Below, piece by piece: positions 3,046 through 20,009 of a DNA stretch of 44,150 bases (positions within the stretch are counted from its first letter, which is position 1; each line of letters opens with the position of its first letter). Below the pieces are notes generated by a model. That model was not told the origin of the DNA. It ran no database searches and saw only the letters and a program-made list of their open reading frames with translations. A program made the position numbers and the translations under genes. Source of the stretch: Candidatus Thorarchaeota archaeon (GTDB lineage: Archaea > Asgardarchaeota > Thorarchaeia > Thorarchaeales > Thorarchaeaceae); the NCBI GenBank assembly GCA_048882325.1, contig JBHLRS010000026.1, positions 1-44,150 of the forward strand, read 5' to 3'.

Positions 3046-4262
3046 AGAGTAAGAAGAAGTCACCCAATAACGGCTACAAGACCAAGTGGCTTCTCAAGAA
3101 GGAAGTGAAGAGTGTTCTTCGATCTCGCTGGTTACTTTTTGGATTCATGATAAGCCCACTTTTTGCATGGCTTTTCCAAGGTGTCTTTCTGAATTTCCTG
3201 TTTGCTACAGCTGTGGAACCAGAAACCGTTTACATCACCGTTGAGGATGAGGGAACTTGGGGGCAATATCTCTATGACAACTTCAATACTCTGTATTTGG
3301 GTGAAAAAAACAAATCTGTTGATGACCAGTATCTGAAGTTTGTAGACTTCATCAACATAACGAGAAACGATGGGCTAGCGTTATGGGAAAACAGAACAGC
3401 AAAGGTGTGGATATACATTCCTGGTAACTTCTCGTCAATATTTGAACAGTGGAATGTAACCACAGTGACAATCTATGTGAATTCTGGCAGTTTCAGGGCA
3501 CAATCAGCATTCGAGCGGATAAGGTTCTATGCACAGTACTGGATGAGAGCCACAGATCTGCAGATACAAAAGATCACTCCACCCAGAGCTGAAGCAAGCT
3601 ATGGGCACCAGTTAGCGATATTTTTGGTCATGATAACATCGGTCATGGCACCGAGTCCATATATCAGTAAATCATTTGCTGGGGAACGGGAACAACACAC
3701 GCTAGAGGCACTACTAGTGGTTCCGATAAGTAGGTTGAGGATCTTGGGTGCCAAGCTGGTTGCCGGGCTTTTATTGACCATGTTCTACTCTACATTCACA
3801 GTTGTGGGTATCCTTGCATACAACTTGCTCGTGACGATTAGGGGTGCTGGTAGTATTGGAAGTCAGGTGGAGTACTATAGTGTTGAAGTGTCGTCCATTC
3901 CCCTGATATTCTTCTGTCAGTTCCTAATCCTACTGTGCGCTATTGGGATTGGTGTAGTAATCTCAACAATGGCAAAGGACCAAGCAACTGCTGAGTCTAT
4001 CAATAACCTTGTGCTGTTAGTTCCGACGATGGTCATCGGAATTTTGGGCTTTGCTGGAAGTCTCAGCCACCTGAGTGGTGCGTTTGCATTCGTTGTGATG
4101 CTGATTCCGTTCAGTCATGCGATAATGTTCCTGAATGGGGTCCTGTCACCAGCTCCAGACCCAATTAGTCTGGTCATCAATGTGGTTTACATGTTGAGCT
4201 TTACTCTAGTATTCCTTATACTGGGTGCTAAGGCATTTGAACGAGAAGCAATCATTGCTTAG
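3042..4262 (+). CDS. ABC-2 type exporter permease (NatB-like)
   Basis: N-terminal TM, extracellular loop with several N-x-S/T sequons, then multiple TMs. Motif GEREQHTLEALLVVP. Overlaps the ATPase stop by 4 nt. Confidence 0.88.
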   Translation: MKSKKKSPNNGYKTKWLLKKEVKSVLRSRWLLFGFMISPLFAWLFQGVFLNFLFATAVEPETVYITVEDEGTWGQYLYDNFNTLYLGEKNKSVDDQYLKFVDFINITRNDGLALWENRTAKVWIYIPGNFSSIFEQWNVTTVTIYVNSGSFRAQSAFERIRFYAQYWMRATDLQIQKITPPRAEASYGHQLAIFLVMITSVMAPSPYISKSFAGEREQHTLEALLVVPISRLRILGAKLVAGLLLTMFYSTFTVVGILAYNLLVTIRGAGSIGSQVEYYSVEVSSIPLIFFCQFLILLCAIGIGVVISTMAKDQATAESINNLVLLVPTMVIGILGFAGSLSHLSGAFAFVVMLIPFSHAIMFLNGVLSPAPDPISLVINVVYMLSFTLVFLILGAKAFEREAIIA

Positions 4263-5653
4263 CGAGTTGGCCACTTAGGGAGATTGTCTATCCCAGCACG
4301 CGCCATTAGTTCAGCACTATGCTTTCGGGCTTTGCTCATTACTTCAGCCTCGTCAAGGGTGAGAAGACGTTTCTCTTGCATGAGTATCCGGCCATTAACG
4401 ATCACTGTGTCGACATACTCACCACTTCCCGAATAGACCAGATTGGATACTGGATTCGTGTGAGGAGTTAGACCCAGCTCATGAAGATTGATGAGAATTA
4501 AATCTGCTAATTTTCCAGGTTCAAGAGACCCCACCTTGTCATCAATGCCCATGGCGATGGCACCTCCAAGTGTTGCCATCTCGATTGCTTCCTCTGCAGT
4601 CACAACAAGGGGATCAGCAACATACGATTTGTGAATTAGTGCCGCTATGCGCATCTCACGCATCAAGTCATAAGTATTGTTTGAAGGACCGCCATCACAA
4701 CCTAGAGAAACTGATACTCCAGCCTTTAGCATCTGAGGGATCTTGGCAAATCCTGATGCGAGTTTCATGTTACTTGCTGGACAGTGACTGATGTTGGACT
4801 TGGTATCAGCGAGGACTTTGAGCTCAGAGTCCTCAAAATGTATTCCATGAGCAAACACCATGTCTGGGCCTAGGAGGTCATGATCACGAGCAAAAGTGGT
4901 GAGATTAGTACCAAAATTCTCATTGACATAACGAACATCATCAACTACCTCTCCAAGATGCATTGTCATCCTCGTTTGCTTCTCACGAGTTCTCCGTGCC
5001 ACATCCTTGAACAGATCGGATGTGACAGCACCGAGTGAACGAAGACCATACCAAACTTGGATACGACCATCCGCTTTTCCGTGCCATTTTCGGTACATCT
5101 CCTCTGTTTCAGTCAGACATGCATCTGCATCTTCAACCATGCCAGGATACATGATATCTGGACTATCAGCATAACCAGTAGAGTCCATGATGATTTTCGA
5201 GAGTGCTCCTCTCATCCCAACTTCTTCAACTGCTTTTGCAATTCCATCAAACCCATATCGGGTGTGAATCATGCAATCGATGAAAGATGTCGTACCTGTA
5301 CGGACCATCTCAGCCATGCATAGCTCTGCTGAAACCTGACCATCGTCTTTAGTAAAGTTCCCCTGAAGAACCCAGACGTATTTCTTTAGCCAGTCCACGA
5401 GAGAAACGTCATCAGCACACCCACGGATGAGCGCTTGTGAAAGGTGGATATGGGTATCAATTAATCCAGGCATGACTATCTTATTCTTAGCATCAATCAC
5501 CAGCTCGGCATTGTGACCCTTAAGTTCTTCACTTTTCCCAATCTCTCTTATTGTATCATCCTCTACATAGATCGAACCATCAGTGATTATCTCACGTTTG
5601 GGATTCAGGGTGAGGATGTACCCGTTCTTTATGAGAATCGATTTTGGTGTCAA
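4259..5653 (-). CDS. Amidohydrolase superfamily deaminase (cog0402; MTA/SAH-, guanine-, SsnA-like)
   Basis: PGLIDTHIH (HxH), HLGE, AHG, HCPASNMKLASG, GCDG, GSLEPGKLAD. Likely TTG start at 5653 behind a GGAGG SD; the ORF track starts at 5698. Confidence 0.88.
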   Translation of the reverse strand: MTPKSILIKNGYILTLNPKREIITDGSIYVEDDTIREIGKSEELKGHNAELVIDAKNKIVMPGLIDTHIHLSQALIRGCADDVSLVDWLKKYVWVLQGNFTKDDGQVSAELCMAEMVRTGTTSFIDCMIHTRYGFDGIAKAVEEVGMRGALSKIIMDSTGYADSPDIMYPGMVEDADACLTETEEMYRKWHGKADGRIQVWYGLRSLGAVTSDLFKDVARRTREKQTRMTMHLGEVVDDVRYVNENFGTNLTTFARDHDLLGPDMVFAHGIHFEDSELKVLADTKSNISHCPASNMKLASGFAKIPQMLKAGVSVSLGCDGGPSNNTYDLMREMRIAALIHKSYVADPLVVTAEEAIEMATLGGAIAMGIDDKVGSLEPGKLADLILINLHELGLTPHTNPVSNLVYSGSGEYVDTVIVNGRILMQEKRLLTLDEAEVMSKARKHSAELMARAGIDNLPKWPTR

Positions 5654-5722
5654 GAGAGATTCCTCCACGTAGACTGGGTAACATCTCTTGCGTGACATAA
5701 CACTTGCGGTGAACTCAAACCA

Positions 5723-7519
5723 TCACACAATCTGGAACTCTATCTCAATTTCAAGTCCCTGGTCTTGCTTCCCTTTCACTCGATCACGGACAATAGGTTT
5801 GTCACCATACTTCTCCGCCAATCGGCGAACCAAATGTAGACCCACTCCACCGAATCGACGAGTGGGTTCGAATAAGTCCGGTTTTTTGTCATCACCCAGT
5901 CCTGGACCGTTGTCTGAGATACTAAGAACAAACTTCTTCCCGGAAACTTTCCCGTTGACCCATACTTTCTTCTTCGCGTCATCAATTGGATTGTGAACGA
6001 CAGCGTTTTCCATGAGGTTCCAAATCAGTTGGCTAAGGGCTTGATCTGCAAGGACCATAATCTTAGGAGGCATTTTGCCAATTTCCACACGAACTCCACG
6101 CTGCTTGAACAGTAACTCGGACTCAGCTTTGATTGCACGAACAATGTCCACTGGACCTAATGGTTCGGTCTTAGCCTCCTCAGCTTTTCTGACCTTCTGG
6201 ATGAGCTCTAAGCACCGAAGGGCACCATCCATAACATATCTCTTTGATCGCATGATTTGGTCCGGGGTAGCGTCCTTCTCAAGGAAGTCACCACCAGCTA
6301 GGATTAGTTGTAACTGATTGCCTATGTCGTGAAGCAACAGGTCTAGTAGGAAATACACCTCAGCCTCAGCCTTCTTCAAATCGGAGATGTCTGTGAAGAT
6401 TGCTATGCTGCCTAAGAATTCACCATCAGGACCTTTCAAGGGAGATGCAGACACCATTACTGGCACAGTTCCCCCAGACCTGTGCTTTAGCAATGCTTCA
6501 TAATGTTCAATCTTGCCTTCTTTTCGCTCCTCCATCTTTTCATGGACCTTATTCTCAGTCCACCCATACAAGATGTCTGTGATGGGAATTCCAATCAACG
6601 TTTCGGGGTCATCACAACCCATCATCCTGCATAATGCGTCATTTGCAAGTACCATCATACCTTCAGCGTTGTCCACACCAAGACCAGAGTCCATGGTTTC
6701 AATGAGTGACCGGTAGCGACGCTCACTCTCCTGTAGGGCGTAGGCGCTTCGTTTCTCATCTGTAATGTCTATTAGTTGAGCTACAGTCTTGAGTTTCCCA
6801 TCATGACCCCTAATCGTTCCAACATTCAAACGGATATCGACAACTTCGCCGCCTTTCCGAATGACTTGGAACTCATAGACTGATGGTACAGTTTCTCCTT
6901 TCTGTCTTCTTCGATATCGGTCAGATACTAAATCTGCACTGTCAGGATGCAGGAATTCTCTGAAGTCATGACCTAGAAGTTCACTACGACGACGACCTAC
7001 GATATCACACATCTTGTCATTGACATATTCAAACTTGTACTGGTCATCGACTATGATGATACCACTGAAACTGTAGTAGTCCACCATGAACTCCAGAATT
7101 TCCTTCCTGTCATCAATCTTCTCTTCCGCAGCCACCCTTCTGCTTAGGTCGATGATGTAGACAACAAAGCCCACCGTCTTACCATTCTTGACTATTTTGT
7201 CAGTGTACACTTGAGTAGGAACCATTACATTATCCCCACGGACTATTCTCAATGAGATTGGAGTGGGGGCTTCTCCATTTCGAAGTAATTTGAGTCCTTG
7301 TTCCACTAAATCTAGTTGTTCTGGAGCTACAAGGTCATGAACTGGAACACCTGCATTGATGACTGACTTGTCAAGGTTGAAAAGTTCCAATGCTGGAGCA
7401 TTAGCATAACATAGGATGGAGTCTTCATCAAGTTCAATGACTGGAATATGCATGGTGTCAGCTACTTGTCGAAATGGTTTCCTATTGGGGGACGGCTTTC
7501 GCTCATAAGACTCTCTCAT
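5723..7519 (-). CDS. Cytoplasmic triple-PAS sensor histidine kinase
   Basis: Three PAS/PAC repeats (YANAPA, YVNDKMC, LANDALC), H-box LLHDIGNQLQ, N-box NLMENA, G1 DNGPG, G2 GVGL. Confidence 0.88.
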   Translation of the reverse strand: MRESYERKPSPNRKPFRQVADTMHIPVIELDEDSILCYANAPALELFNLDKSVINAGVPVHDLVAPEQLDLVEQGLKLLRNGEAPTPISLRIVRGDNVMVPTQVYTDKIVKNGKTVGFVVYIIDLSRRVAAEEKIDDRKEILEFMVDYYSFSGIIIVDDQYKFEYVNDKMCDIVGRRRSELLGHDFREFLHPDSADLVSDRYRRRQKGETVPSVYEFQVIRKGGEVVDIRLNVGTIRGHDGKLKTVAQLIDITDEKRSAYALQESERRYRSLIETMDSGLGVDNAEGMMVLANDALCRMMGCDDPETLIGIPITDILYGWTENKVHEKMEERKEGKIEHYEALLKHRSGGTVPVMVSASPLKGPDGEFLGSIAIFTDISDLKKAEAEVYFLLDLLLHDIGNQLQLILAGGDFLEKDATPDQIMRSKRYVMDGALRCLELIQKVRKAEEAKTEPLGPVDIVRAIKAESELLFKQRGVRVEIGKMPPKIMVLADQALSQLIWNLMENAVVHNPIDDAKKKVWVNGKVSGKKFVLSISDNGPGLGDDKKPDLFEPTRRFGGVGLHLVRRLAEKYGDKPIVRDRVKGKQDQGLEIEIEFQIV

Positions 7520-7697
7520 GGTCCCACATCAGTATCCAGTGCTAACTCCAAACCAGCGCATAAGATGAAATTGGACGAGTGGTCCGTCACGAATCCTCTT
7601 CATATACTTTAGTAAGATGTATTCCTCAATGGGCAACAACTTAAAGTGCTGAACGCAAGGTGGAGCAGGCTGAACAATCAACTGGAGAGAAGAACTG

Positions 7698-8189
7698 TTG
7701 AAGAGTTTCCTGGCGATTGATCTCAAGAAATGCACAGGTTGCAGAAACTGTGAGTTGGGCTGTTCTGCAGAACGAACAAAATCGTTCAATCCAAGAAGGT
7801 CCAGAATTCAGATTCTGAAGGATGAGATTCGAAACCTTGTGGTTCCAATGGTCTGCCTTCAGTGTGAGGCGCCATTGTGCGAGCAAGCTTGTCCAACTGG
7901 TGCAATCTCATACAATGAAAAGGGAACTCTCATAGTCAACAGTAATGTATGCATAGGGTGTGAGAATTGCGTTACTGCATGTACTTATGGTGGGATTGAG
8001 ATAGACCCCCGAACTCTGAAGGCAGTGAAATGCGATCTCTGTTGGGGAGACCCGGCTTGCGTGAAAGCTTGTGACTATGGCGCAATCACACTCGTTGATG
8101 CGAAGGAAGAGGGATTCAGGGCAAGGAGAGAGGGCTTAGGCTTTGCATATGAAACAGCAGGAATGAATCTAGGGGAGGTAACTGAATGA
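7698..8189 (+). CDS. 4x[4Fe-4S] DmsB/HydN-type electron-transfer subunit of AOR
   Basis: Four Cys clusters: CTGCRNCELGC, CLQCEAPLCEQACP, CIGCENCVTAC, CDLCWGDPACVKAC. Overlaps the AOR start. Confidence 0.9.
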   Translation: MKSFLAIDLKKCTGCRNCELGCSAERTKSFNPRRSRIQILKDEIRNLVVPMVCLQCEAPLCEQACPTGAISYNEKGTLIVNSNVCIGCENCVTACTYGGIEIDPRTLKAVKCDLCWGDPACVKACDYGAITLVDAKEEGFRARREGLGFAYETAGMNLGEVTE

Positions 8190-10117
8190 CAGACTTTCCG
8201 TACAAAGGCTACGCAGGGTATTACTTGGATATTGACCTGACAAAGGGTAAAATTCACAAGAAAGTGCTTGAGAAGGACTGGACAAGACTCTATTTGGGCG
8301 GAAGCGGCGTCGCAGCCAGAATTCTATGGGACAGAACTGGACCTGATACGAATCCTCTAGGTCCTGAGAATGTCTTGATTGTAGGAACTGGTCCACTCAC
8401 TGGAGCAATGTTCTCTCCATCAGGAAGAATGATGTTTGCAACGAAGAGCCCACTCACTGGCGTATGGGGAGAAAGTCATGTCGGGGGATTCCTAGGTGCT
8501 GAGATCAAGTATGCAGGTTTCGATTTTGTGATCTTTAACGGACGTTCTGAGAAGCCAGTCTATCTATCACTTCGTGATGGGAATGCCGAGCTTCTTGATG
8601 CATCCCATCTCTGGGGCAAGGAAACCAATGTCACAACCGAGATGATTCGCGAAGATCACAAAGACCCTACGATTAAGACCGGTGTGATAGGCCCAGCAGG
8701 TGAGAATGGAGTTCTTTATGGTTCAATCATAGTTGACTTCTACAGAGCTGCTGGAAGAACTGGGTTAGGAACAGTCCTTGGGTCTAAGAATGTCAAGGGA
8801 GTAGCAGCAAGTGGAGCTCAGGGAATTGAGGTCTATGATATGGATAAGTACCATGAAGCCAACGAAGTAGAGATGGAGAGGATCAAAGACCCACTCTGGA
8901 CTGAGTCTCTGGCATCTCTGAGAAAGTATGGCACGACGGACTTAGTCGCAATAATCAATGAGATTGGTAGACTCCCGACAAAGAATCACTGGACTGGATA
9001 CTTTGAGAAAGCTGATGATATTGGTCCAGAACTCATCGCTGAAAGGTATAGAATTGCCCAAGAAGCCTGTCATGGGTGTGCGGTTGGCTGCAAATATATC
9101 ATTAGAGTCAGTGGAGGCAAATACCCAACCGGACCTATTGGAGGCCCAGAGTATGAAACAATCATGGCATTTGGTTCAAACTGCATGAATAGCGATATTG
9201 AGTCAGTGTTTCATCTAGGTAAGAGATGCGATTTGCTTGGTATGGATACGATAAGCTGTGGAAAGTCCATCAGCTTTGCCATGGAACTCTTTGAGAAGGG
9301 AATAATAACAAAAAAGGATGCAGATGGTCTTGACTTAAGTTGGGGAAATGGCGAAACTCAGGCCGCGCTTGTGGAAAAGATTGCAAAGCGGGAGGGTTTT
9401 GGAAACATCCTTGCTGATGGCGTAAGAAAGGCTGCTGAGAGAATTGGTGGTGATGCTTGGAAGTATGCGATTCATGTAAAAGGCCTTGAGGCATCAGGAC
9501 AGGACCCGCGAGCTCACCAGAGTATTGGACTTACCTACGCGACCAATGTTAGGGGTGCTGATCATCTAAGAAGCATATCCTGCGTTGAGGAACTAGGCTA
9601 TCCTGAGATTGCAGCCGCTAGATTTGGAGAGGAGAAAGCTGAGGCAATCCTAGAGATTATGTCTCCAAAGTATAAGGGAGAGTTGATATGGGACATGGAA
9701 GACCTCTATGCGCTTGTGGACTCTGGGGTTATCTGCAAATACGGGACCATGTGGCCACCAGTCTATTATTTCGACACCTTTGTTAATGTGATACCCCCGT
9801 TGACGGGGATGACTGAGTGGGGAGACCCCAAGTTTGTTAGACAAGCTGCTGAGAGGATAAGTCATCTCAGGAGAGCCTACAACCACAGACTTGGTGTGAC
9901 TCGCAAGGATGAAAACCTTCCACACAGGTTATTGAAGGAACCCATGCCAACTGGACCATCGAAAGGTGGACTTCCTGACCTTGATGAAATGCTAGATGAG
10001 TACTACAAATATCGTGGGTGTGACCGTGAAACAGGGTATCCCAAGGAATCAAAGTTGAAGGAGCTAGGTCTTGATTTTGTGATTGACGACCTGAAACCTC
10101 GCGGCATGACTAGGTAA
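8186..10117 (+). CDS. Tungsten aldehyde:ferredoxin oxidoreductase (AOR/WOR) family protein 1
   Basis: KSPLTG, GPAGEN, AAGRTGLGTVLGSKNVK, CHGCAVGC, GPEYE, DLLGMDTIS, RGADHL, ICKY. Confidence 0.93.
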   Translation: MTDFPYKGYAGYYLDIDLTKGKIHKKVLEKDWTRLYLGGSGVAARILWDRTGPDTNPLGPENVLIVGTGPLTGAMFSPSGRMMFATKSPLTGVWGESHVGGFLGAEIKYAGFDFVIFNGRSEKPVYLSLRDGNAELLDASHLWGKETNVTTEMIREDHKDPTIKTGVIGPAGENGVLYGSIIVDFYRAAGRTGLGTVLGSKNVKGVAASGAQGIEVYDMDKYHEANEVEMERIKDPLWTESLASLRKYGTTDLVAIINEIGRLPTKNHWTGYFEKADDIGPELIAERYRIAQEACHGCAVGCKYIIRVSGGKYPTGPIGGPEYETIMAFGSNCMNSDIESVFHLGKRCDLLGMDTISCGKSISFAMELFEKGIITKKDADGLDLSWGNGETQAALVEKIAKREGFGNILADGVRKAAERIGGDAWKYAIHVKGLEASGQDPRAHQSIGLTYATNVRGADHLRSISCVEELGYPEIAAARFGEEKAEAILEIMSPKYKGELIWDMEDLYALVDSGVICKYGTMWPPVYYFDTFVNVIPPLTGMTEWGDPKFVRQAAERISHLRRAYNHRLGVTRKDENLPHRLLKEPMPTGPSKGGLPDLDEMLDEYYKYRGCDRETGYPKESKLKELGLDFVIDDLKPRGMTR

Positions 10118-10192
10118 CACAGTCATTGATGATTTGATGGGATTACCTTTAAGTAACGTTCAATATCTGGTGAATGACCAACAGATTGTTTG

Positions 10193-10199
10193 TTTTAAT
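10193..10199 (+). promoter_or_regulatory. Putative archaeal TATA box (TTTTAAT) for a leaderless CLC transcript
   Basis: TTTTAAT ends about 23 nt before ATG 10222. The same heptamer lies upstream of genes at 15424, 35349 and 41227. Confidence 0.45.
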
Positions 10200-10221
10200 T
10201 CATTGAAGGCGATTAGTAGTT

Positions 10222-12027: not shown

Positions 12028-12083
12028 ATACCATAATTGCGATTGGTAGAATTCTTTATGTTGAATGCATCTTAGGTTGCAGT

Positions 12084-13178
12084 ATGGTCGACATCAGCGT
12101 CAAGTTTGCAGGACTGAAACTCAAGAACCCAGTCATGACTGCAGCAGGTCCAACCTCAAGAGACGGAATGACCCTACTGAATGCTGCAGCAGGAGGTGTA
12201 GGTGGTCTTGTTGCCAAGACCGTCAGCACCAGACCTGCAGAGGTTCCAAGACCCAATATGGCCGCTCTCAAAGAAGGGAGAGTCGGCTCTCGAAGAGGAA
12301 TATTGAATACAGAACTCTGGAGTGAACTACCTGTCGAACAGTGGCTTGAGAAAGAGTATGCAATTGCCCTAAGTTCTGGTCTACCACTGATTGCTAGTGT
12401 GGGATATACTCCGGAAGAAGTTTCCGAACTTGGTCCGAAACTTGAGGCAGCTGGGGTCCATGCAATCGAATTCAGCACTCATTACGTTGGAGGGCACACA
12501 GACATTGCAAAGGCACTCAAAGAAGTAGTCGAGATACCAATCTTTGCAAAGATCAGCCCTAAGGTGGATGTTGCAGAGGTTGCCAAACAGCTTGAGCCTC
12601 ATGTCGATGGGATAGTGGGGATTAACACCTTTGGTCCGTGCTTGAGAATAGATATCGAAACTGGCAAACCTATGCTAGGCAGTAGTGACGGATTTGGATG
12701 GATGAGTGGCATGGCATTAAAGCCAATTGCTCTCAGGTGCATTGCGGACATTGCTAGAGCAGTCAAGATACCTGTCATTGGGGTTGGGGGTGTGTCTGGA
12801 GGAGAAGATGTTATTGAGTTCACCATGGTGGGAGCCTCAGCAGTTGAAGTCTGTACTGCTTCAATCTTGGAAGGGCATAGTGTGTATGGGAAGATTGCCG
12901 TAGAAACTGCAGACTGGTTGAAAGATCATGGGTACGACGCACTTGAGGACGTCAGAGGTATCGCACTACGTCACATGGATGGTAGTGCCACACTGACACC
13001 GCCGCCTGCTGTAGATATGGAGAAATGTACTCTATGTGGCCTGTGTCCCAAGTCTTGCGTGTATGGAGCGATCACTGTAGACAAGAAGAGAGACCTCTTT
13101 GAGATTGACAAGAGGTTGTGTGAGGCTTGTGGCATGTGTATCTCAGTCTGTCCCTATCATGCATTGAGTGCAGATTAG
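12084..13178 (+). CDS. Dihydroorotate/dihydropyrimidine dehydrogenase (PreA-like) FMN barrel with C-terminal 2x[4Fe-4S] ferredoxin
   Basis: LKNPVMTAAGP, AKT, GINT, GWMSG, PVIGVGGV, GASAVEVCT, then CTLCGLCPKSC and CEACGMCISVCP. The canonical NxSCP loop is absent. Confidence 0.82.
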   Translation: MVDISVKFAGLKLKNPVMTAAGPTSRDGMTLLNAAAGGVGGLVAKTVSTRPAEVPRPNMAALKEGRVGSRRGILNTELWSELPVEQWLEKEYAIALSSGLPLIASVGYTPEEVSELGPKLEAAGVHAIEFSTHYVGGHTDIAKALKEVVEIPIFAKISPKVDVAEVAKQLEPHVDGIVGINTFGPCLRIDIETGKPMLGSSDGFGWMSGMALKPIALRCIADIARAVKIPVIGVGGVSGGEDVIEFTMVGASAVEVCTASILEGHSVYGKIAVETADWLKDHGYDALEDVRGIALRHMDGSATLTPPPAVDMEKCTLCGLCPKSCVYGAITVDKKRDLFEIDKRLCEACGMCISVCPYHALSAD

Positions 13179-14380
13179 ACCCAGAGCATTGTGTCTAGGT
13201 TCTTGGTCAGGAGGTCAGCCTTTCCCTTTGTGACTGCATAGTCATTCTCTATCCTGACACCACCAATATCCTTGAGATACACCCCCGGTTCGATCGCCAT
13301 GATGTGTCCGACTGCAAAGTTGTCTTCGCGTTTGTACATACTTGGTTGTTCATGCACCTCAAGCCCTATTCCATGTCCCAGACCATGGGTCATTCCATCT
13401 ATTGCATCAGGATTTAACCGCCGGGAGTCGAAACCATGCTTTTTCAGCGTGTTGAAGCACGCAAGGTTCACATCATCAATTATTGCACAATCTGTGAGCG
13501 CTTCCACAGCGGCATCAGCTGCTGCTTGAACTGCCTCAAACATCTCTTTCACTTTTTGAGAGGGGGCTCCTTTCACAATTGTTCTGGTGACATCAGCGAC
13601 GTATCGTTCCTGCTTCAGTCGTGGATACACATCCAAGATGATTGGAGTATCAGACTTTAATTCGTCCTCAGCATTCCCAAGATAATGCCAGTCAAACGCC
13701 TTCTCGCCAACTGCAAGGATTGTGTCCTCTGCTGATTCTGCGTTCTTGTCCAGAAGAAAGTGTTCGAGAGCGAGCTTAACGAAACCCACTGTAAGGGGTT
13801 TGCCTTGGTACATGAGTGTCTTGTTAGCACCAATATCTGAGTTCTTGATCATTTCAATGACTCTCTTGATGGCTCCAACTGTGGCATCACCTGCCTTCTT
13901 AATTATCTTGATCTCATCAGAACTCTTCGTCGCCCTTGCATCGGGAATTAGGTCTTCAACAACCTTGACATCATACTTTAGTTTCTGTAAGATAACCAAC
14001 ACACTTGCAGGTATCTCATCTGGAACACCGAGAACCTTCCCGGTGAAGTTGTCACTAAGCATGGGACCAATGAGTGTATCTCTATGGTCCATGATTCGCT
14101 TATTTTCTTTCAGAAGTTGGACAATGAGATCACTCAAATCGTATGTATTCTTCAAAAAACTCTCTTTCTTCACGCGATCTAACGTGTTGAAGGGAGCACC
14201 GATGATACCTTGTTCACCCTTATTCCGAAGATAATAGATATTGTCACCGGACCGGAATCCAGTCAACCATAGAAGATTAGGAGAGTCAAACGGACTACCA
14301 TAGGAAAATAGTCCATCAATCTCATACTTTTCCATGAGGGCATCCATATCGTTTCGCATGACATTCGCCTTACTAGACAT
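13175..14380 (-). CDS. M24 family Xaa-Pro peptidase
   Basis: Metal ligands intact: LDV, ADVTRT, HGLGHGIGLEVHE, IEPG, GVRIEND. Confidence 0.9.
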   Translation of the reverse strand: MSSKANVMRNDMDALMEKYEIDGLFSYGSPFDSPNLLWLTGFRSGDNIYYLRNKGEQGIIGAPFNTLDRVKKESFLKNTYDLSDLIVQLLKENKRIMDHRDTLIGPMLSDNFTGKVLGVPDEIPASVLVILQKLKYDVKVVEDLIPDARATKSSDEIKIIKKAGDATVGAIKRVIEMIKNSDIGANKTLMYQGKPLTVGFVKLALEHFLLDKNAESAEDTILAVGEKAFDWHYLGNAEDELKSDTPIILDVYPRLKQERYVADVTRTIVKGAPSQKVKEMFEAVQAAADAAVEALTDCAIIDDVNLACFNTLKKHGFDSRRLNPDAIDGMTHGLGHGIGLEVHEQPSMYKREDNFAVGHIMAIEPGVYLKDIGGVRIENDYAVTKGKADLLTKNLDTMLWV

Positions 14381-14413
14381 CGGAGGAAAGATTGTTTGTT
14401 AAAAAGCTTCTAT

Positions 14414-15310
14414 TCATGCCTGAAGATAGGAATGCATCCGAGTTTCAATCATAATTCGATCAGGCAGGTTGTAAGGACCAAAAGACTCCACATTGAAGGA
14501 GGAGCATGTTGCCGCAAACAGTCCAGCTCGCGTGACATTCGCAGTTCGCATGTACTCGAGCAGAAACCCTATGGCGTACGTGTCTCCACAACCGGTTGAG
14601 TCTACTTGGGACTCTGCTAAGACAAGTGGTATGTCTACCTGTGCATCACGTGTGTAGATGGTGGATCCTCTATAGTCACGGGTAACTATCACAATCCTAG
14701 GTCCAAGGTCCAAGATATGTGAGACTGTTGATAGTTCAGACTCATATCCTCTAATAATCTGCAGTTCAGAGTCATGAAGTTTGACCACATCCACGAGTCT
14801 GAGTATCTCCTCACTCAGCTCCCACTTCTTAGTCTTCACAAGATTGTTTCTGGAAATTGACCTCAGATATCCCTGCACATCCAGTGAAACCAATGCACCT
14901 TCCTCGCGTGCAGCATGATAACATGCCCTGTCAATCTCATTGTCTGTCAACGGCGAAAAGTGAATGATGTTTGACTCAAAATGAGTGCCTGTGAAGTCAG
15001 ACTCCTTGATCTGTGGTGCGATTGCTTCTACCCTTTGCGTGCGCTCGCCCTCTGCATTATACTCATTGACAAAACGTGTTGTGTGGTCACCCTGATAGTG
15101 AAGTCCTGAGAGATTAAGACCAGAACTTATCAAGTCAATTTTGTATGATTCATCAAAGTCAGAGCCAACCTTAGAAACGACCCCCGCCCCAAAGGCACCG
15201 ATTGCAGGAGCCAACATCGCGTAAGCTGGGGCACCCCCAAGTGTTTCCCTTCTGGCTTCAGGCGTGACTATCAGGTCTCTACTGAGGTGTCCAACCACTA
15301 CGAGCTCCAT
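14414..15310 (-). CDS. PfkB/ribokinase family kinase
   Basis: LGGAPAY, VGSDF, SLDVQG and anion-hole DSTGCGD. Start placed at ATG 15310 (MELVVVG). Confidence 0.88.
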   Translation of the reverse strand: MELVVVGHLSRDLIVTPEARRETLGGAPAYAMLAPAIGAFGAGVVSKVGSDFDESYKIDLISSGLNLSGLHYQGDHTTRFVNEYNAEGERTQRVEAIAPQIKESDFTGTHFESNIIHFSPLTDNEIDRACYHAAREEGALVSLDVQGYLRSISRNNLVKTKKWELSEEILRLVDVVKLHDSELQIIRGYESELSTVSHILDLGPRIVIVTRDYRGSTIYTRDAQVDIPLVLAESQVDSTGCGDTYAIGFLLEYMRTANVTRAGLFAATCSSFNVESFGPYNLPDRIMIETRMHSYLQA

Positions 15311-15375
15311 TCTGCATCTGTTGACACACACACCTGCTCAGTCCTATAACTCCTGTGTTTTAGAAGGACAGAAGG

Positions 15376-15391
15376 CAACGGTTTTAATCTC
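15376..15391 (+). promoter_or_regulatory. Putative BRE/TATA promoter of the moaD-amidohydrolase-AOR operon
   Basis: CAACGGTTTTAATCTC, 15/16 identical to 35287-35302. Confidence 0.5.
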
Positions 15392-15423
15392 ACAATCTAT
15401 CTCGGTATATTGGATGTGATATC

Positions 15424-15705
15424 TTGGCACAGGTCTTAGTGAAGTTCTTTGCTACTGTGAGAGAGGTTACAGGAGTCAAGAGTATAGAACTACAAGCAGA
15501 AAACATCAGAGAACTTCTTGACATATTGGTACAGACATACGGAGCCAAGTTCAAAGACACTGTACTCGACAATGATACTGGACAACTCAAGCAGTTCTTC
15601 TCGTGCATGATCAATGGCAAACGTATCGAACTACTCGATGGATATGAAACCGTACTGAAAGACAATGACGCAATAGCTCTATTCCCGCCTGTCGGAGGGG
15701 GATGA
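15424..15705 (+). CDS. MoaD/SAMP1-like ubiquitin-like sulfur carrier
   Basis: VKFFATVRE start, INGK, C-terminal FPPVGGG. Confidence 0.92.
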   Translation: MAQVLVKFFATVREVTGVKSIELQAENIRELLDILVQTYGAKFKDTVLDNDTGQLKQFFSCMINGKRIELLDGYETVLKDNDAIALFPPVGGG

Positions 15706-17112
15706 ATGAGCAGTACCCTCACGTCAACCTTCAGGAAACAGACGAGAGGGCCTGTTGACCTAGTTGTCAAAAACGCCAAGTTACTTCTAGAGTCTGGAAT
15801 TATTCGAGGCGGGATCGGTGTTGTGGACGGGAAGATCGTTGTAATCGCCAGCGATGAACACCTTCCTGAGGCTGGTACTGTGATTGATGCAGAGGGCAAT
15901 ATCATGATGCCCGGACTGATTGATGCGCATGCTCACATTCACGATCCCACCATGCAGGAACATGAAACCTTCATCACAGGGTCAAAAGCAGCCGTAGCTG
16001 GAGGGGTGACTACTTTTGTAGACATGCCACTCATGAGTCAGGTTGATACAGTGAAGGTGGTAGAGGAGAAAATCGCACAGGGAGAAGAGATGAGTGTTGC
16101 AGATTTCACATTCTATGCTGGAATGATGAACTCAGAAAATTACGTAGCAGTGCCACTTCTGGTTGAAAAAGGTGTGGCAGCTTTTAAAGCATTCACCTGT
16201 GAACCATATCAGACCAGTAATGGCGTCCTATTAAGGTGCCTGAGTGCGATATCTGAATATGGAGGTCATCTCACAGTTCATGCTGAAGACCAGGGAGTCC
16301 TAGATGAGTTTTCAAATGAGATGGCAGATGACTGGGATGCGCCTATCAGTCACTCTCTCGCAAGACCTAATGTTGCTGAGCAATTAGCAATACAACAGAG
16401 CATCAACATTGCAAAAGAAACCGGGGGACATCTCCACATTGCTCATGTCACTACCAGAGAAGGAGTACGTGAAGTGGAGAGAGGCAGACTACGAGGCGTG
16501 ATGGTCACTACGGAGGTGTGCCCGCATCATCTTATGTTCTATCGAGATGAGATGAATCGTCTAGGCACTAAGAGCAAGATGAACCCACCTCTCAGAGCAA
16601 GAGAGGACCGAGCTGCACTTTGGTCTGCATTACTCCGTGGAGCAATTGATGTTGTTGTGAGTGATCATGCTCCATGTCCAATAGAGATGAAAGAAGAAGG
16701 TGCTGATGATATCCGTAATGCGTGGTCAGGAGTTGATGGGATTCAGATAATTCTCAGAGTGCTTCTTTCTGAGGGTATCAACAAAGCTCGCCTATCATAT
16801 GCGAAACTCCTTCGTGTGTGTTCTCGAAATCCTGCAAGAATATTTGGCCTTTATCCCAAGAAGGGTGTCCTAGCCATCGGAGCAGACGCAGACTTTGTAA
16901 TAATTGATCCAAACAAGGAAGAAAAGATTACAGCGGACCTGATGGAGTCAAAGTGCGGATGGACACTCTATGAGGGAATTACCATGAAAGGAACGCCTGT
17001 AAAGACCTTTATCAGGGGCATAGAAGCGTACAATGAGGGCAACGTGACTCTAAAACCGGGCCATGGAATGTTCCAAGCTATGGGTAGTGGAGATAGACCG
17101 ATAGGAGATTGA
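15706..17112 (+). CDS. Cyclic amidohydrolase (allantoinase/dihydropyrimidinase/dihydroorotase family)
   Basis: PGLIDAHAH, AVAGGVTT, carbamylated-Lys site AFKAF, VHAED, HIAHV, EVCPHHL, KMNPPLR, SDHAP. Confidence 0.88.
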   Translation: MSSTLTSTFRKQTRGPVDLVVKNAKLLLESGIIRGGIGVVDGKIVVIASDEHLPEAGTVIDAEGNIMMPGLIDAHAHIHDPTMQEHETFITGSKAAVAGGVTTFVDMPLMSQVDTVKVVEEKIAQGEEMSVADFTFYAGMMNSENYVAVPLLVEKGVAAFKAFTCEPYQTSNGVLLRCLSAISEYGGHLTVHAEDQGVLDEFSNEMADDWDAPISHSLARPNVAEQLAIQQSINIAKETGGHLHIAHVTTREGVREVERGRLRGVMVTTEVCPHHLMFYRDEMNRLGTKSKMNPPLRAREDRAALWSALLRGAIDVVVSDHAPCPIEMKEEGADDIRNAWSGVDGIQIILRVLLSEGINKARLSYAKLLRVCSRNPARIFGLYPKKGVLAIGADADFVIIDPNKEEKITADLMESKCGWTLYEGITMKGTPVKTFIRGIEAYNEGNVTLKPGHGMFQAMGSGDRPIGD

Positions 17113-17115
17113 CCC

Positions 17116-17610
17116 TTGACCGAACTCAAATTTGTATTTGGTGACCCACGAGTTTGCTCGGGGTGTATGACCTGCACGAACACTTGTAGTATGTTCTATT
17201 ACAAAGTGATCAGCCCTGCTCGTGCAAGAAACCGAGTTGTAAGAATTGAACCTGCACTAGATTTTCCTCTCTTTTGTAGAAATTGTGAAGATGCTCCATG
17301 CATGACATCCTGTCCGGAACAGGCCCTATCACGAACATCAAAGGGAGTAGTGATTGTTAACAACAAGAAGTGTGTGAGTCACGGAGAATGTGTTAAGGCA
17401 TGTCCTTACTATGCAATCAGAATTCATCCAGACACTGGGAAGGCGTTCAAGTGTATACAGTGCGGCCAATGCGTGAAACGATGTCCTGCGGATGCCATAT
17501 TCCTGACGACTGAAGCAGAGCTGGAGAATAGGGACAAAGACGGTAGTATGAGAGCGTTTTACGAGCAATACAAGGAAGAGATCTATGATAAGAAGGAGGA
17601 ATCACTATGA
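17116..17610 (+). CDS. Polyferredoxin (DmsB/HydN-type) subunit of AOR
   Basis: CSGCMTCTNTC, CRNCEDAPCMTSCP, CVSHGECVKACP (His replaces one Cys), CIQCGQCVKRCP. Confidence 0.88.
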   Translation: MTELKFVFGDPRVCSGCMTCTNTCSMFYYKVISPARARNRVVRIEPALDFPLFCRNCEDAPCMTSCPEQALSRTSKGVVIVNNKKCVSHGECVKACPYYAIRIHPDTGKAFKCIQCGQCVKRCPADAIFLTTEAELENRDKDGSMRAFYEQYKEEIYDKKEESL

Positions 17611-19499
17611 TCTTCGGAGTAGGTGGACATATCCTCAGGGTTGACCTGACAAAGGGATTGGTTGAGAAACGACCTCTGGACGAAGAGATGATTAAAAACT
17701 ACCTACTCGGAGCAGGTTATCTTTCTCGGATCTTATTCGACAACATCCCAGTAGGAATCGATCCTCTCAGCGATAAGAACGTCCTAGGAATTGCCACCGG
17801 TCTGCTTACAGGTTCTATGTTTCCCCAAGCTTCAAGACACGTCGTTGCAGGCCTCTCACCTCTAACAGACATATGGGGAGAGAGTCATGCTGCAGGTTTC
17901 TTTGGTGCAGAGCTGAAATTTGCTGGATATGATGCCATAATATTCACTGGAGCATCTTCAGAGCCAGTATATCTAGACATAAAGGACAAGGAAGTGAATC
18001 TCCTAGATGCTGAGGCTGCAGGAATCTGGGGGAAGGATGTCTTTGAAACAGATGACATCCTGAAGGAAAAACATGGCAAACGAATCAGGACCCTGTCTAT
18101 TGGGCAAGCAGGAGAGAACCTGGTGAGATTTGCAGCAGTGATGAATGACCGAGACCGAGCCTCAGCCCGATCGGGGCTAGGAGCTGTCATGGGATCGAAG
18201 AAGTTGAAGGGTGTTTGTGTACGAGGCACTGGAAAGCTCGAAGTTGCTGATCCGAAGAACTACTTGAAGGAGATTGATGTACTACACAAACGTATGATGG
18301 CAAATCCATTTACACCAGGTCGAATCAAGTATGGGACCACCAGTCTTGTGGAACTGATGCAGCACATTGGACGATTACCCAGCTATAACATGAAACAGGG
18401 TGTCTTTGATGGATTCGAGAAGATAAGTGGCGATGCCATCAATCAACAGTATCTCGTGAAGGCGAGAGCAGACTTTGCATGCTTACAACGATGTGGACGC
18501 TATACTGCTGTAAGAACAGGGCCATATGCCTATGAAGGTGGAGCCCCTGAATTTGAAACCCAATCATCCATGGGCTCAAGATGCGGAAATGATAATCTTG
18601 AGTCAGTCCTGTTTGGCCATCATCTTGCCAACCAATATGGAATGGACACCATCTCGCTTGGAGCTACAATCTCGTGGGCAATGGAAGCCTGGGATGAGAA
18701 ACTCCTGACTGCCGAGGACACAGGTGGAATTGATCTCAGCTGGGGCAACCATGAAACTGTGGTGAACCTAACTCGAATGATTGCTTTTCGAGAGGGTTTT
18801 GGAGATATTCTTGCTGAAGGTAGCGCGAGAGCGGCAGAAAGGATTGGAAGAGGTACTGAGAAGTTTGTGATGGCTGTGAAGAAGCAAGAGATAGCTGGAC
18901 AAGAGCCTCGGGCTCAGAAGTCAATGGGGCTTGCAGCAGTCACAGCAGCACGTGGTGCCGACCATCTCTACTCATTCCCTGTCCTTGATGAAGCAGGATT
19001 TGATGAGGAGATAAGAGAACGGTTCGGTGAGGAATACCTCCCTGAGATGGCGGAACGGTTGAATCCAAAGTACAAGGGCATAATGGTCAAGGAGTGTGAG
19101 GACTTTATGGTAATGGTGGAGAGTGTGGGACTCTGCAAATATGGGACTCAGATACCTCCAGAGTTCTTCTATGATGACATAGCTCTTGCTTTGAGAATTC
19201 ATAACGGAATTGATGTTAATCGAGAGGACCTGCAGAAGATAGGAGAGCGCATCGTCAATCTCAATCGGTTGTTCAATGCACGACTTGGGATTACAAGAAA
19301 GGACGACTGCCTTCCAGAAAGACTCACGAAGGAGAAGGCACCTCTCGGACCCTCAGCTGGTGAAGTTGTCGAGATTGATATGATGCTTAATGAATACTAT
19401 CAAGAGCGTGGATGGGATCAGAATACCGGATTACCAACTAAAGAGACCCTCATGAAACTGGGGTTGCTTGAGGATGGTAGGAGTGCTGGTGTGCTGTAG
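17607..19499 (+). CDS. Tungsten aldehyde:ferredoxin oxidoreductase (AOR/WOR) family protein 2
   Basis: SPLT, GQAGEN, GLGAVMGSKKLK, PEFE, GMDTIS, RGADHL, LCKY. Cluster motif DFACLQRC. Confidence 0.93.
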   Translation: MIFGVGGHILRVDLTKGLVEKRPLDEEMIKNYLLGAGYLSRILFDNIPVGIDPLSDKNVLGIATGLLTGSMFPQASRHVVAGLSPLTDIWGESHAAGFFGAELKFAGYDAIIFTGASSEPVYLDIKDKEVNLLDAEAAGIWGKDVFETDDILKEKHGKRIRTLSIGQAGENLVRFAAVMNDRDRASARSGLGAVMGSKKLKGVCVRGTGKLEVADPKNYLKEIDVLHKRMMANPFTPGRIKYGTTSLVELMQHIGRLPSYNMKQGVFDGFEKISGDAINQQYLVKARADFACLQRCGRYTAVRTGPYAYEGGAPEFETQSSMGSRCGNDNLESVLFGHHLANQYGMDTISLGATISWAMEAWDEKLLTAEDTGGIDLSWGNHETVVNLTRMIAFREGFGDILAEGSARAAERIGRGTEKFVMAVKKQEIAGQEPRAQKSMGLAAVTAARGADHLYSFPVLDEAGFDEEIRERFGEEYLPEMAERLNPKYKGIMVKECEDFMVMVESVGLCKYGTQIPPEFFYDDIALALRIHNGIDVNREDLQKIGERIVNLNRLFNARLGITRKDDCLPERLTKEKAPLGPSAGEVVEIDMMLNEYYQERGWDQNTGLPTKETLMKLGLLEDGRSAGVL

Positions 19500-20009
19500 G
19501 TGAAAGAGATGGTCACACACAAATTTCAAACCAAGATAGAGATGACTGTAGAAGAGTTTCATACCGCTAGGCATAAGAAACTAGTTTCACTCATCCGAGA
19601 ACTGGAGAGGGTCCTGGGGAGAGATGAAGCTCATAAGTTAGTTTCAAACTGGGCGGAGCGTACTGCAGTCAATGACATCAAGTCTGTCATTGCCTCACAA
19701 GAAAAACCACCAGAAACCTTTGAAGACATCAAGGTTTTGTTACGAGGATGGGTTGACGACCTAAATTCGAACAACATGGAAACTGTATCTATTACTGAGG
19801 AAACCAATTCCAAGTCGATTTGCATGGTTGATGAGTGTATCTATGCTTCGATCTTCAACAAGCTTGATGCAGCAGATATTGGTTATCTACTTTATTGCAA
19901 ACATGACTTTACAACAACTCCTGAGATTCATCCTAACTTAGGCTTGAAAAGAGAGAAGACAGTCATGCAGAGAAATGACTGCTGCGACTTTGAATATTAC
20001 TGGAAATGA
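19500..20009 (+). CDS. L-2-amino-thiazoline-4-carboxylic acid hydrolase family (V4R-like) protein
   Basis: Pattern ECIYA...GYLLYCKHD...HPNLGLKREKTVMQ...CDFEY. Confidence 0.65.
   Translation: MKEMVTHKFQTKIEMTVEEFHTARHKKLVSLIRELERVLGRDEAHKLVSNWAERTAVNDIKSVIASQEKPPETFEDIKVLLRGWVDDLNSNNMETVSITEETNSKSICMVDECIYASIFNKLDAADIGYLLYCKHDFTTTPEIHPNLGLKREKTVMQRNDCCDFEYYWK

Follow-up and report, generated by a model that had tools for sequence, protein, structure and literature searches.

What would enzymes of the tungsten-dependent aldehyde oxidoreductase (AOR) family do among genes for the deamination, reduction and hydrolysis of nitrogen heterocycles? This question is raised by a gene island of a Candidatus Thorarchaeota archaeon, located in a stretch of 44,150 nucleotides (contig JBHLRS010000026.1 of assembly GCA_048882325.1) which is referred to as the window and represents contig C26 of a 3.6-Mb genome with a completeness of 93%. 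The original prediction had proposed an anaerobic pathway for nucleobases or other N-heterocycles with the functional grammar of bacterial urate and purine catabolism, but with tungstopterin enzymes in place of those of the xanthine oxidase family. According to the comparative analysis presented here, the island is tentatively, and with somewhat less than even confidence, regarded as the front half of a reductive, oxygen-free degradation of purine-type rings, the logic and some enzymes of which would be homologous to those of the reductive urate (2,8-dioxopurine) route known from bacteria.

Gene Content of the Island

Open reading frame (ORF) calling and Pfam and NCBIfam scans of the window confirmed all gene positions and the close junctions (0-4 nt) that had been claimed, including two pairs of an AOR and a polyferredoxin within 16 kb. 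The genes on which the argument is built are the following:

4259-5698, minus strand: cog0402 (TRZ/ATZ) amidohydrolase, deaminase-type (Pfam Amidohydro_1, 246 bits)
7698-8189, plus strand: FeS1, AorA-like polyferredoxin, small subunit of AOR1 (Fer4 families)
8186-10117, plus strand: AOR1, tungstopterin AOR-family catalytic subunit (AFOR_N and AFOR_C)
12084-13178, plus strand: predicted UacX-family FMN/2x[4Fe-4S] flavoprotein, 364 aa (DHO_dh and Fer4)
15706-17112, plus strand: hydantoinase/allantoinase-like cyclic amidohydrolase (TIGR03178 allantoinase, 361.5 bits)
17116-17610, plus strand: FeS2, polyferredoxin, small subunit of AOR2 (Fer4 families)
17607-19499, plus strand: AOR2, second AOR of the Gln427 clade described below (AFOR_N and AFOR_C)

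FeS1 and AOR1 form a tight pair with a 4-nt overlap. A second tight run comprises genes for MoaD, the cyclic amidohydrolase, FeS2, AOR2 and an ATC_hydrolase, with junctions of 0, 3, -4 and 0 nt.

A UacX-Type Flavoprotein

The gene at 12084 had been described as a PreA-like FMN-FeS reductase, and it can now be placed in a more specific family. Its product consists of an FMN barrel (PF01180) and a C-terminal 2x[4Fe-4S] part without an FAD/NAD(P)H module, which is the architecture of UacX, a ferredoxin-type enzyme that together with SsnA reduces and opens 2,8-dioxopurine in Clostridioides difficile (Li et al., PMC12507026). PreA and dihydroorotate dehydrogenase possess a catalytic Cys loop of 12 residues which is missing here, the window protein featuring 'IEFSTH--YVGG' where the canonical PreA of the same genome reads 'NVSCPHG...', and this loop is likewise absent from every AOR-linked PreA-like protein.

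Loci around genuine SsnA genes in Clostridia served as comparison set. In three of them (L141, L142, L145), the SsnA of which scores 550-626 bits against TIGR03314 (cut-off 455.5), a PF01180 protein of 362-371 aa is encoded immediately 3' of SsnA, where other clusters have YgfK. The clusters L141 and L142 also hold homologues of XdhD, YgeY, YgeW, YgeX and carbamate kinase. With these three SsnA-adjacent proteins, the window flavoprotein shares 46-49% identity, compared with 33% with the canonical PreA of its own genome, and the shortened loop with its STHY motif is common to both sides ('EFSTH--YVGGH' vs 'ELSTH--YVGTD'). By their position, these clostridial proteins are regarded as putative orthologues of the UacX from C. 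difficile. Since position and architecture of its clostridial relatives match the UacX of Li et al., the window flavoprotein is considered UacX-type and predicted to be a ring-reducing (dearomatising) member of the UacX family. Longer fused forms of the flavoprotein, e.g., AOR-UacX, were searched for and none was found, which counts as weak evidence. Among 301 sampled Asgard genomes, UacX-type orthologues occur in 88, comprising 70 of 76 in the family of the window and 14 of 19 in one other family; they were not found in several other well-sampled families of this set.

Two Amidohydrolases and the Pyrimidine Genes Elsewhere in the Genome

The best NCBIfam model of the window cog0402 protein is 5'-deoxyadenosine deaminase (420 bits, cut-off 522), and its best match in the PDB is the methylthioadenosine (MTA)/S-adenosylhomocysteine (SAH) deaminase 4f0r. 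The motifs HxH and HxxE as well as the His and Asp residues are all present. Both SsnA models score far lower than their cut-offs (TIGR03314 220 bits vs 455.5, PRK07203 234 bits vs 444). The protein is therefore predicted to be closest to 5'-deoxyadenosine/MTA/SAH and 8-oxoguanine deaminases. A deaminase-type amidohydrolase is thus encoded where it had been reported, but its equation with SsnA was not sustained. Orthologues adjoin AOR1 modules in another Asgard family (G035, 53% identity), in L042 (50%) and in another genus of Thorarchaeota (L046, 69%). A paralogue for which SsnA is the best model is encoded on contig C7 of the same genome, with scores (357 and 374 bits) below the respective cut-offs of 455.5 and 444; no pathway genes were recognisable by Pfam around it. 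Two ORFs without Pfam match (276 and 501 aa), which overlap and run in the same direction, precede this SsnA-like gene (C7:75319-79037, corresponding to L129:3319-7038) and could encode partners of a ring-opening step.

The cyclic amidohydrolase barely exceeds the cut-off of the allantoinase model TIGR03178 (361.5 vs 357.85 bits), remains below that of D-hydantoinase (TIGR02033, 311 vs 393.25) and reaches 313 bits against pyrC_multi (cut-off 279). Its best PDB matches are L-hydantoinase 1gkr and allantoinases, and HxH, the carboxylated-Lys site, two His and the Asp are retained. Opening of a five-membered ureide ring, i.e., a HyuA-like role, is predicted from these features. The order of cyclic amidohydrolase, FeS2 and AOR2 is conserved in 17 of the 19 other loci of the genus. 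In one exception (G011:C198, L018), the cyclic amidohydrolase gene is missing and MoaD is directly followed by FeS2-AOR2; the other, L028, is truncated at the contig start. In L040, an AOR is followed by a 36%-identical homologue of the cyclic amidohydrolase.

The original prediction depended on the gene at 15706 not being the only pyrC of the genome, and a better PyrC is indeed encoded on contig C42 (pyrC_multi, 331.5 bits). Moreover, contig C33:20133-25161 (L044, L002) holds a complete canonical cluster for pyrimidine reduction, in which genes for a dihydropyrimidinase (497 bits, cut-off 393) and a carbamoyl-amidase of the nitrilase family accompany that of a 404-aa PreA-like protein with the NVSCPHG loop. 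Because a separate pyrC and a canonical pyrimidine reduction cluster exist, the island is not part of housekeeping pyrimidine metabolism.

The AOR/Polyferredoxin Pairs

Both AORs contain the full-length domains of the family (AFOR_N and AFOR_C, 240 and 411 bits for AOR1, 235 and 418 bits for AOR2) and are most similar to genuine AORs (PDB 9mqx, 1aor and 8c0z, E 1e-101 to 1e-125). AOR2 is 43% identical to AOR1, and FeS2 is 36% identical to FeS1. An alignment of nine homologues revealed 16 invariant or near-invariant Cys in each small subunit, predicted to be enough for four [4Fe-4S] clusters.

Active-site residues were mapped by alignment to the AOR of Pyrococcus furiosus (PfAOR, 1aor), with the residue list taken from a review (PMC12096430). 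Thr243, Glu313 and His448 are retained in AOR1 and AOR2. Tyr427, which has been proposed to hold the oxygen of the aldehyde (PMC12096430), is replaced by Gln in both and in all 20 members of the Gln group of the tree; this Gln427 corresponds to Gln439 in AOR1 numbering and is invariant across 11 aligned members of the clade. With Thr, Glu and His kept and Tyr427 replaced, neither enzyme carries the signature of AOR sensu stricto. AOR2 features further changes, namely Tyr312 to Phe, Tyr452 to Phe and Cys288 to Asp. Accordingly, the [4Fe-4S] ligands at the PfAOR positions 288, 291 and 295 are three Cys in AOR1, and Asp, Cys and Cys in AOR2; the fourth ligand (PfAOR Cys494) corresponds to the invariant C517 of AOR1. 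The Asp (residue 289 of AOR2) is common to the AOR2 orthologues of G035 and L046, every other aligned AOR having Cys. The cluster of AOR2 is predicted to be ligated by three Cys and Asp, as known from WOR5/ASOR.

A family phylogeny, proposed along with the pathway, placed both AORs in a well-supported clade. The IQ-TREE analysis covered 62 members of the family, among them 20 sequences with the Gln, 19 of which, including AOR1 and AOR2, fall into one clade (SH-aLRT 98). It comprises 21 rows with an SH-aLRT of 96 once the 20th Gln row, a Spirochaetales protein, and a Gly-bearing sister are added, and a FastTree of 142 sequences gave the same grouping. The genome holds 12 AOR paralogues, and heterocycle-type neighbours were found only at the two in the window. 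Canonical Tyr427 AORs are encoded on contigs C50, C49 and C65. A third AOR of the Gln427 clade with a polyferredoxin is located on contig C4:4897-11027 (L043), beside a class IV aminotransferase and a Glu/Leu/Phe/Val dehydrogenase. In several genomes of the genus, some AOR paralogues of other types lie in open frames of about 1040-1270 aa (e.g., G024:C311, G001:C19, G009:C7 and G016:C5), which suggests fusions of AOR with another domain.

Linkage of the Gln427 Clade to Heterocycle Genes

An AOR locus was regarded as linked if a UacX-like gene and/or a cog0402 or cyclic amidohydrolase gene was present within 10 kb. By this definition, 11 of the 16 Gln427-clade loci outside the genus are linked, compared with 1 of 72 other AOR loci (Fisher p 1.5e-9, relatedness ignored). 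The anticipated association of the AOR clade with genes for heterocycle conversion was thereby recovered in several phyla. The linked loci represent at least six separate lineages, including Asgard archaea (among them family f12), Bathyarchaeia, Spirochaetales, Neomarinimicrobiota and five unassigned metagenome contigs. Among them, the gene order is rearranged and overlaps are frequent.

Several searches contributed to this count. In a library of 1.8 billion proteins, searched through representatives of 50%-identity clusters, the three nearest representatives of AOR2 are all encoded beside amidohydrolases, and two of them also beside a PreA-like gene. A scan of GTDB species genomes yielded 80 AOR loci, five of which feature PreA-like or cog0402 neighbours, i.e., L045 (Bathyarchaeia), L046 (another genus of Thorarchaeota, with the full island), L051 (Bathyarchaeia, with Gly at position 427), L053 (Neomarinimicrobiota) and L124 (Spirochaetales); none of the other 75 does. 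The overall count also takes in G035 and the contexts of four more representatives. The AOR1 orthologues of G035, L042, L045 and L046 directly adjoin UacX-like genes. The five unlinked members of the clade comprise a 4-kb contig, a Thermoplasmata locus and a subgroup of Thorarchaeota.

Further genes of purine and nucleoside conversion accompany the linked AORs. In the Spirochaetales operon L124, the AOR gene is preceded by those for a YgeY-family hydrolase (434 bits, cut-off 321), an SsnA-like and a UacX-like protein, in this order. In G035, genes for a deaminase-like cog0402 protein, MoaD and an SsnA-like protein (382 bits) precede a run of FeS, AOR1, PreA-like and MoaD genes, with AOR2-FeS2 nearby. 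An SsnA-like protein is also encoded in L045. A genuine 8-oxoguanine deaminase, the product of which is urate, was detected in L125 (594 bits, cut-off 532), and a cytosine-deaminase-like gene in L041. Nucleoside ABC transporters of the Bmp type occur in L041, L042 and L130. The genes of L042 similar to ornithine carbamoyltransferase (OTCase) and PALP were considered as YgeW and YgeX and rejected, as NCBIfam assigned them to ornithine/N-acetylornithine carbamoyltransferases and threonine synthase. In L130:1-11744, an aldolase of the dihydrodipicolinate synthase (DHDPS) family, an ILVD/EDD dehydratase and a ketol-acid reductoisomerase-like reductase are encoded between amidohydrolase-AOR-FeS and the UacX-like gene with the Bmp transporter; these enzymes may act on the sugar moiety of a nucleoside.

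The absence of xanthine-oxidase-family enzymes beside the AORs, implied by the proposed substitution, was likewise observed. The genome, at its completeness of 93%, gave no PF02738 match, and AOR-linked and XdhD/YgfK-linked loci were mutually exclusive in the sample: XdhD or YgfK was found in none of 13 AOR-linked loci, and an AOR in none of 11 SsnA-anchored bacterial loci.

Proposed Pathway and Alternative Explanations

In the proposed pathway, the cog0402 deaminase-type enzyme would convert an amino-purine base or nucleoside to its oxo form, and the UacX-family flavoprotein would dearomatise the ring by reduction. The SsnA-like hydrolase of contig C7 and the hydantoinase/allantoinase-like enzyme of the AOR2 operon would open the rings. 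The metallopterin redox step of the bacterial XdhD/DOPDH would be performed by the Gln427-clade AORs and their polyferredoxins. Oxygen would thereby be added to or removed from a ring carbon, a two-electron reaction which formally equals the interconversion of aldehyde and acid, and electrons would pass via iron-sulfur chains to or from UacX or ferredoxin. Enzymes of the xanthine oxidase family act on both aldehydes and heterocycles. Substrate, direction of electron flow and the action of the AORs on a heterocycle are all inferred. It is considered possible, but doubtful, that the AORs of the Gln427 clade are tungsten-dependent hydroxylases or dehydroxylases of purine ring carbons which replace the Mo/Se enzymes XdhD/DOPDH and couple oxygen insertion or removal electronically to reductive dearomatisation via the polyferredoxins and UacX.

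Several observations weigh against the purine reading. Thr243, Glu313 and His448, retained in both AORs, are the residues used for aldehyde oxidation. Within the Gln427 clade, a subgroup (C4, L047, L048, L050) is devoid of heterocycle genes and has conserved aminotransferase and dehydrogenase neighbours, which is a typical setting for aldehydes derived from amino acids. Thorarchaeota share the gene order of the entire region, with purB, an ABC exporter and the kinase, so that synteny within the family adds little support. Several SsnA loci of the canonical type are likewise without XdhD within 10 kb, so that the absence of a nearby XdhD is on its own weak evidence. The island itself does not contain an SsnA-like gene. 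In BLAST searches of clostridial XdhD, YgfK, YgeX, YgeY and YgeW against the ORFs of the genome, no convincing orthologue was detected, the best matches of YgeX and YgeY showing 21-26% identity; a counterpart of the peptidase-fold enzyme YgeY, which the original prediction had listed for the bacterial route, is accordingly not found among these ORFs. Two OTCase-like genes of contig C1, located 10 kb apart and flanking no hydantoinase, were considered as YgeW and rejected, since they match models of N-acetylornithine/ornithine carbamoyltransferase. Finally, the Spirochaetales genome G305 carries both a canonical SsnA+YgfK cluster and the AOR operon L124 (contigs C81, L138, and C84). Thus, the AOR module does not simply stand in for an identical step with an identical substrate, and both systems are probably not redundant. 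Taken together, the original interpretation held in part: the bacterial-like functional grammar is real and, with the UacX-type reductase, the amidohydrolases and the clade linkage, closer than had been claimed, but the SsnA identity, the ATC_hydrolase, M24 and PfkB genes and the specificity of MoaD had to be given up.

Unlikely, albeit by no means negligible, is the alternative that the same purine-type pathway operates with AORs which oxidise aldehydes and feed low-potential electrons via the polyferredoxins to UacX. The aldehyde would originate from nucleoside ribose, ring opening or general fermentation, and FeS-AOR would take the place that the PreT/FAD module has in dihydropyrimidine dehydrogenase. 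An electron-donating AOR would fit the reductive route, which uses four electrons, and the UacX-type proteins, which have no FAD/NAD(P)H module of their own and depend on a low-potential donor (PMC12507026). This alternative also agrees with the retained catalytic residues Thr243, Glu313 and His448, the amino-acid catabolic context of one Gln427 subgroup, the PfkB kinase in the window and the sugar-acid-type genes (DHDPS-family aldolase, ILVD/EDD dehydratase) interleaved with the module in L130. Nevertheless, a shared ferredoxin pool would suffice for this purpose, leaving unexplained a dedicated AOR clade with an altered site whose genes overlap those of the module in several phyla. The residue lost is precisely the aldehyde-positioning Tyr, canonical Tyr427 AORs are already encoded on C50, C49 and C65, and no aldehyde-producing enzyme is consistently linked.

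The degradation of another N-heterocycle by the same general logic is improbable. A pyrimidine, a pterin or flavin fragment, allantoin/hydantoin or a modified nucleoside (5'-deoxyadenosine, MTA) would be candidates, in agreement with the closeness of the window cog0402 protein to 5'-deoxyadenosine/MTA deaminases, the marginal allantoinase score of the cyclic amidohydrolase and the cytosine-deaminase-like gene in L041. Parts of vitamin-like transporters of the energy-coupling factor (ECF) type in L040 and L127 point in the same direction, as do distant UacX-like proteins (L040, L051, L124, L130) which have no STHY motif and share only 30-40% of their residues with clostridial UacX, and the Spirochaete which also retains the canonical urate cluster. 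The identity of 46-49% and the common loop shared with SsnA-linked UacX, however, argue for a purine, and so do the 8-oxoguanine deaminase, YgeY-family and SsnA-like neighbours and the Bmp transporters of purine-nucleoside type; for pyrimidines, a canonical reduction cluster already exists in the genome. The salvage of radical-SAM by-products, combining a 5'-deoxyadenosine deaminase, a kinase and the aldehyde of a dihydroxyacetone phosphate (DHAP) shunt, was rejected as the main reading, as it leaves the UacX-like protein, the cyclic amidohydrolase and the cross-phylum partners unexplained. That ordinary aldehyde:ferredoxin oxidoreductases of a peptide-fermenting archaeon lie beside housekeeping nucleotide genes by chance would agree with 12 AOR paralogues, a region syntenic in Thorarchaeota including purB and the ABC exporter, and the non-conserved M24, PfkB, ClC and ATC_hydrolase genes, but is very improbable because AOR, UacX-like and amidohydrolase genes are associated in rearranged order in several phyla and in only one of 72 other AOR loci, with housekeeping pyrC and PreA being encoded elsewhere.

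Comparison with Known Systems

The purine reading is best judged against the reductive urate clusters, which in Escherichia coli comprise XdhD-YgfM, YgfK, SsnA, HyuA, YgeW, YqeA, YgeY and YgeX and in the C. difficile variant include UacX and UacY (PMC12507026; bioRxiv 10.1101/2025.04.24.650524). Like these clusters, the island combines a UacX-family ring reductase, cog0402 and hydantoinase-type amidohydrolases and a metallopterin oxidoreductase, and its related loci hold a YgeY-family hydrolase, SsnA-like proteins, an 8-oxoguanine deaminase and nucleoside transporters. Unlike them, it features tungsten AOR-family enzymes with polyferredoxins where the bacteria use Mo (Se) XdhD/DOPDH, its cog0402 protein is deaminase-like with the SsnA-like gene on another contig, and no orthologue of YgeW, YgeX, YgeY or UacY was found in the genome. 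The hosts also differ, being archaea (Asgard, Bathyarchaeia) and bacterial lineages unreported with an AOR-linked cluster. Both 2025 pathway papers make no mention of tungsten, AOR or archaea (PMC12507026; bioRxiv 10.1101/2025.04.24.650524), and a full-text literature search found no published description of an AOR-linked purine module.

Among characterised AOR-family enzymes, AorABC of Aromatoleum aromaticum (PDB 8c0z), a broad-range aldehyde oxidoreductase, likewise combines a catalytic tungsten subunit with a four-cluster polyferredoxin encoded just upstream (PMC12096430, PMC6365974). AOR1 and AOR2 match AorB with about 340-380 bits. In contrast to AorABC, the island lacks a gene for an AorC-type FAD/NAD subunit, Tyr427 is replaced by Gln, and the partners are heterocycle enzymes. 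As in the operon of the window, a MoaD-like gene is presumably part of the aor operon of Aromatoleum. With WOR5/ASOR of P. furiosus (PDB 6x6u; PMC12096430), the island shares a polyferredoxin subunit, the cluster of three Cys and Asp (predicted for AOR2) and an altered second-shell Tyr; however, the similarity amounts to about 200-235 bits over the N-terminal two thirds, and WOR5 has Tyr replaced by His, converts sulfonates and is not linked to heterocycle genes. BamB of class II benzoyl-CoA reductase (PDB 4z3w) is an AOR-family tungsten subunit which, together with a polyferredoxin, acts on an aromatic ring. It is distant (213-232 bits, N-terminal part) and differs in its active site, its large bifurcating complex and its carbocyclic thioester substrate. 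WOR5/ASOR with its aliphatic sulfonates and BamB with its aromatic ring are precedents in the AOR family for reactions beyond aldehydes (PMC12096430).

A similar logic is known from the nicotinate fermentation of Eubacterium barkeri, which is internally redox-balanced and involves a Mo/Se nicotinate hydroxylase, a ferredoxin-dependent 6-hydroxynicotinate reductase and an enamidase. The sequence of metallopterin hydroxylation, ferredoxin-linked ring reduction and opening by an amidohydrolase resembles that proposed for the island. Nevertheless, other protein families catalyse the first two steps and the substrate is a pyridine.

Neighbouring Genes

The remaining genes within and near the island are the following:

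76-1446: adenylosuccinate lyase purB (TIGR00928, 461 bits, cut-off 326)
5723-7519, minus strand: PAS-domain sensor histidine kinase (PAS and HATPase_c domains)
10222-12027, plus strand: ClC channel with CBS domains (Voltage_CLC and CBS)
13175-14380, minus strand: divergent M24 metallohydrolase of the prolidase/creatinase fold (Peptidase_M24, 131 bits)
14414-15331, minus strand: PfkB-family kinase (PfkB, 78 bits)
15424-15705, plus strand: MoaD/ThiS-fold sulfur carrier (TIGR01687 moaD_arch, 74 bits, cut-off 49.5)
19500-20009, plus strand: ATC_hydrolase-family gene (PF14196, 60.6 bits)

Four of these had been counted as members of the pathway, a role that comparison with related loci did not support. 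The M24 protein is weakly similar to the PepQ model (99.5 bits, cut-off 630) and to prolidases of Pyrococcus as best PDB matches (97 bits). For the PfkB kinase, which is present as a single copy in the genome, no NCBIfam model came near its cut-off, and PDB matches were 3kd6, MJ0406 and TM0415. The synteny of both is confined to Thorarchaeota; the M24 protein is predicted to be peripheral, with a ureido- or amide-cleaving step as a possible function, and the kinase appears to be peripheral as well and weakly similar to the nucleoside kinase MJ0406. MoaD-like genes also accompany many AORs outside the clade (L056, L062, L067, L070, L084, L086, L088, L117, L120), and MoaD is likely a generic AOR accessory for the supply of the metallopterin cofactor. 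Downstream of AOR2, no ATC_hydrolase homologue was found in any of the 19 other loci of the genus or in L046, G001, G002 and G013, and the gene is seen as a species-level addition to the operon.

The PAS histidine kinase and the ClC channel lie inside the span and were missing from the original gene list. The former is syntenic in G001, G002, G013 and L046 and was not seen in the non-Thorarchaeota loci, which suggests a conserved Thorarchaeota neighbour and a possible regulator. No ClC gene separates AOR1 from the flavoprotein in a congener (G001, L037), in G035 and in L042, where both genes are adjacent, and the channel gene is probably a variable insertion which is not part of the system. 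Additionally, purB, a gene of purine biosynthesis/salvage, precedes the island at a distance of about 3 kb and shows synteny in L046, a link which may be coincidental.

Implications

If the AORs act on the ring, the tungsten AOR family, of which few substrates beyond aldehydes have been characterised, would gain a new class of reaction, and this would represent a convergent replacement of xanthine-oxidase-family enzymes. Whichever role of the AORs holds, the range of a pathway that was solved only in 2025, in gut bacteria, would come to include uncultured archaea of sediments (Thorarchaeota, Bathyarchaeia). Moreover, a function would be assigned to a widespread 'PreA-like, Cys-less' flavoprotein which is easily misannotated as dihydroorotate dehydrogenase, and some of the many unexplained AOR paralogues in sediment archaea would obtain a testable role. 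Purines and nucleosides would be fermentation substrates for Asgard archaea, and purine fermentation independent of Mo and NAD(P)H would, if the proposal is true, be a trait of Asgard archaea, Bathyarchaeia and some bacteria.

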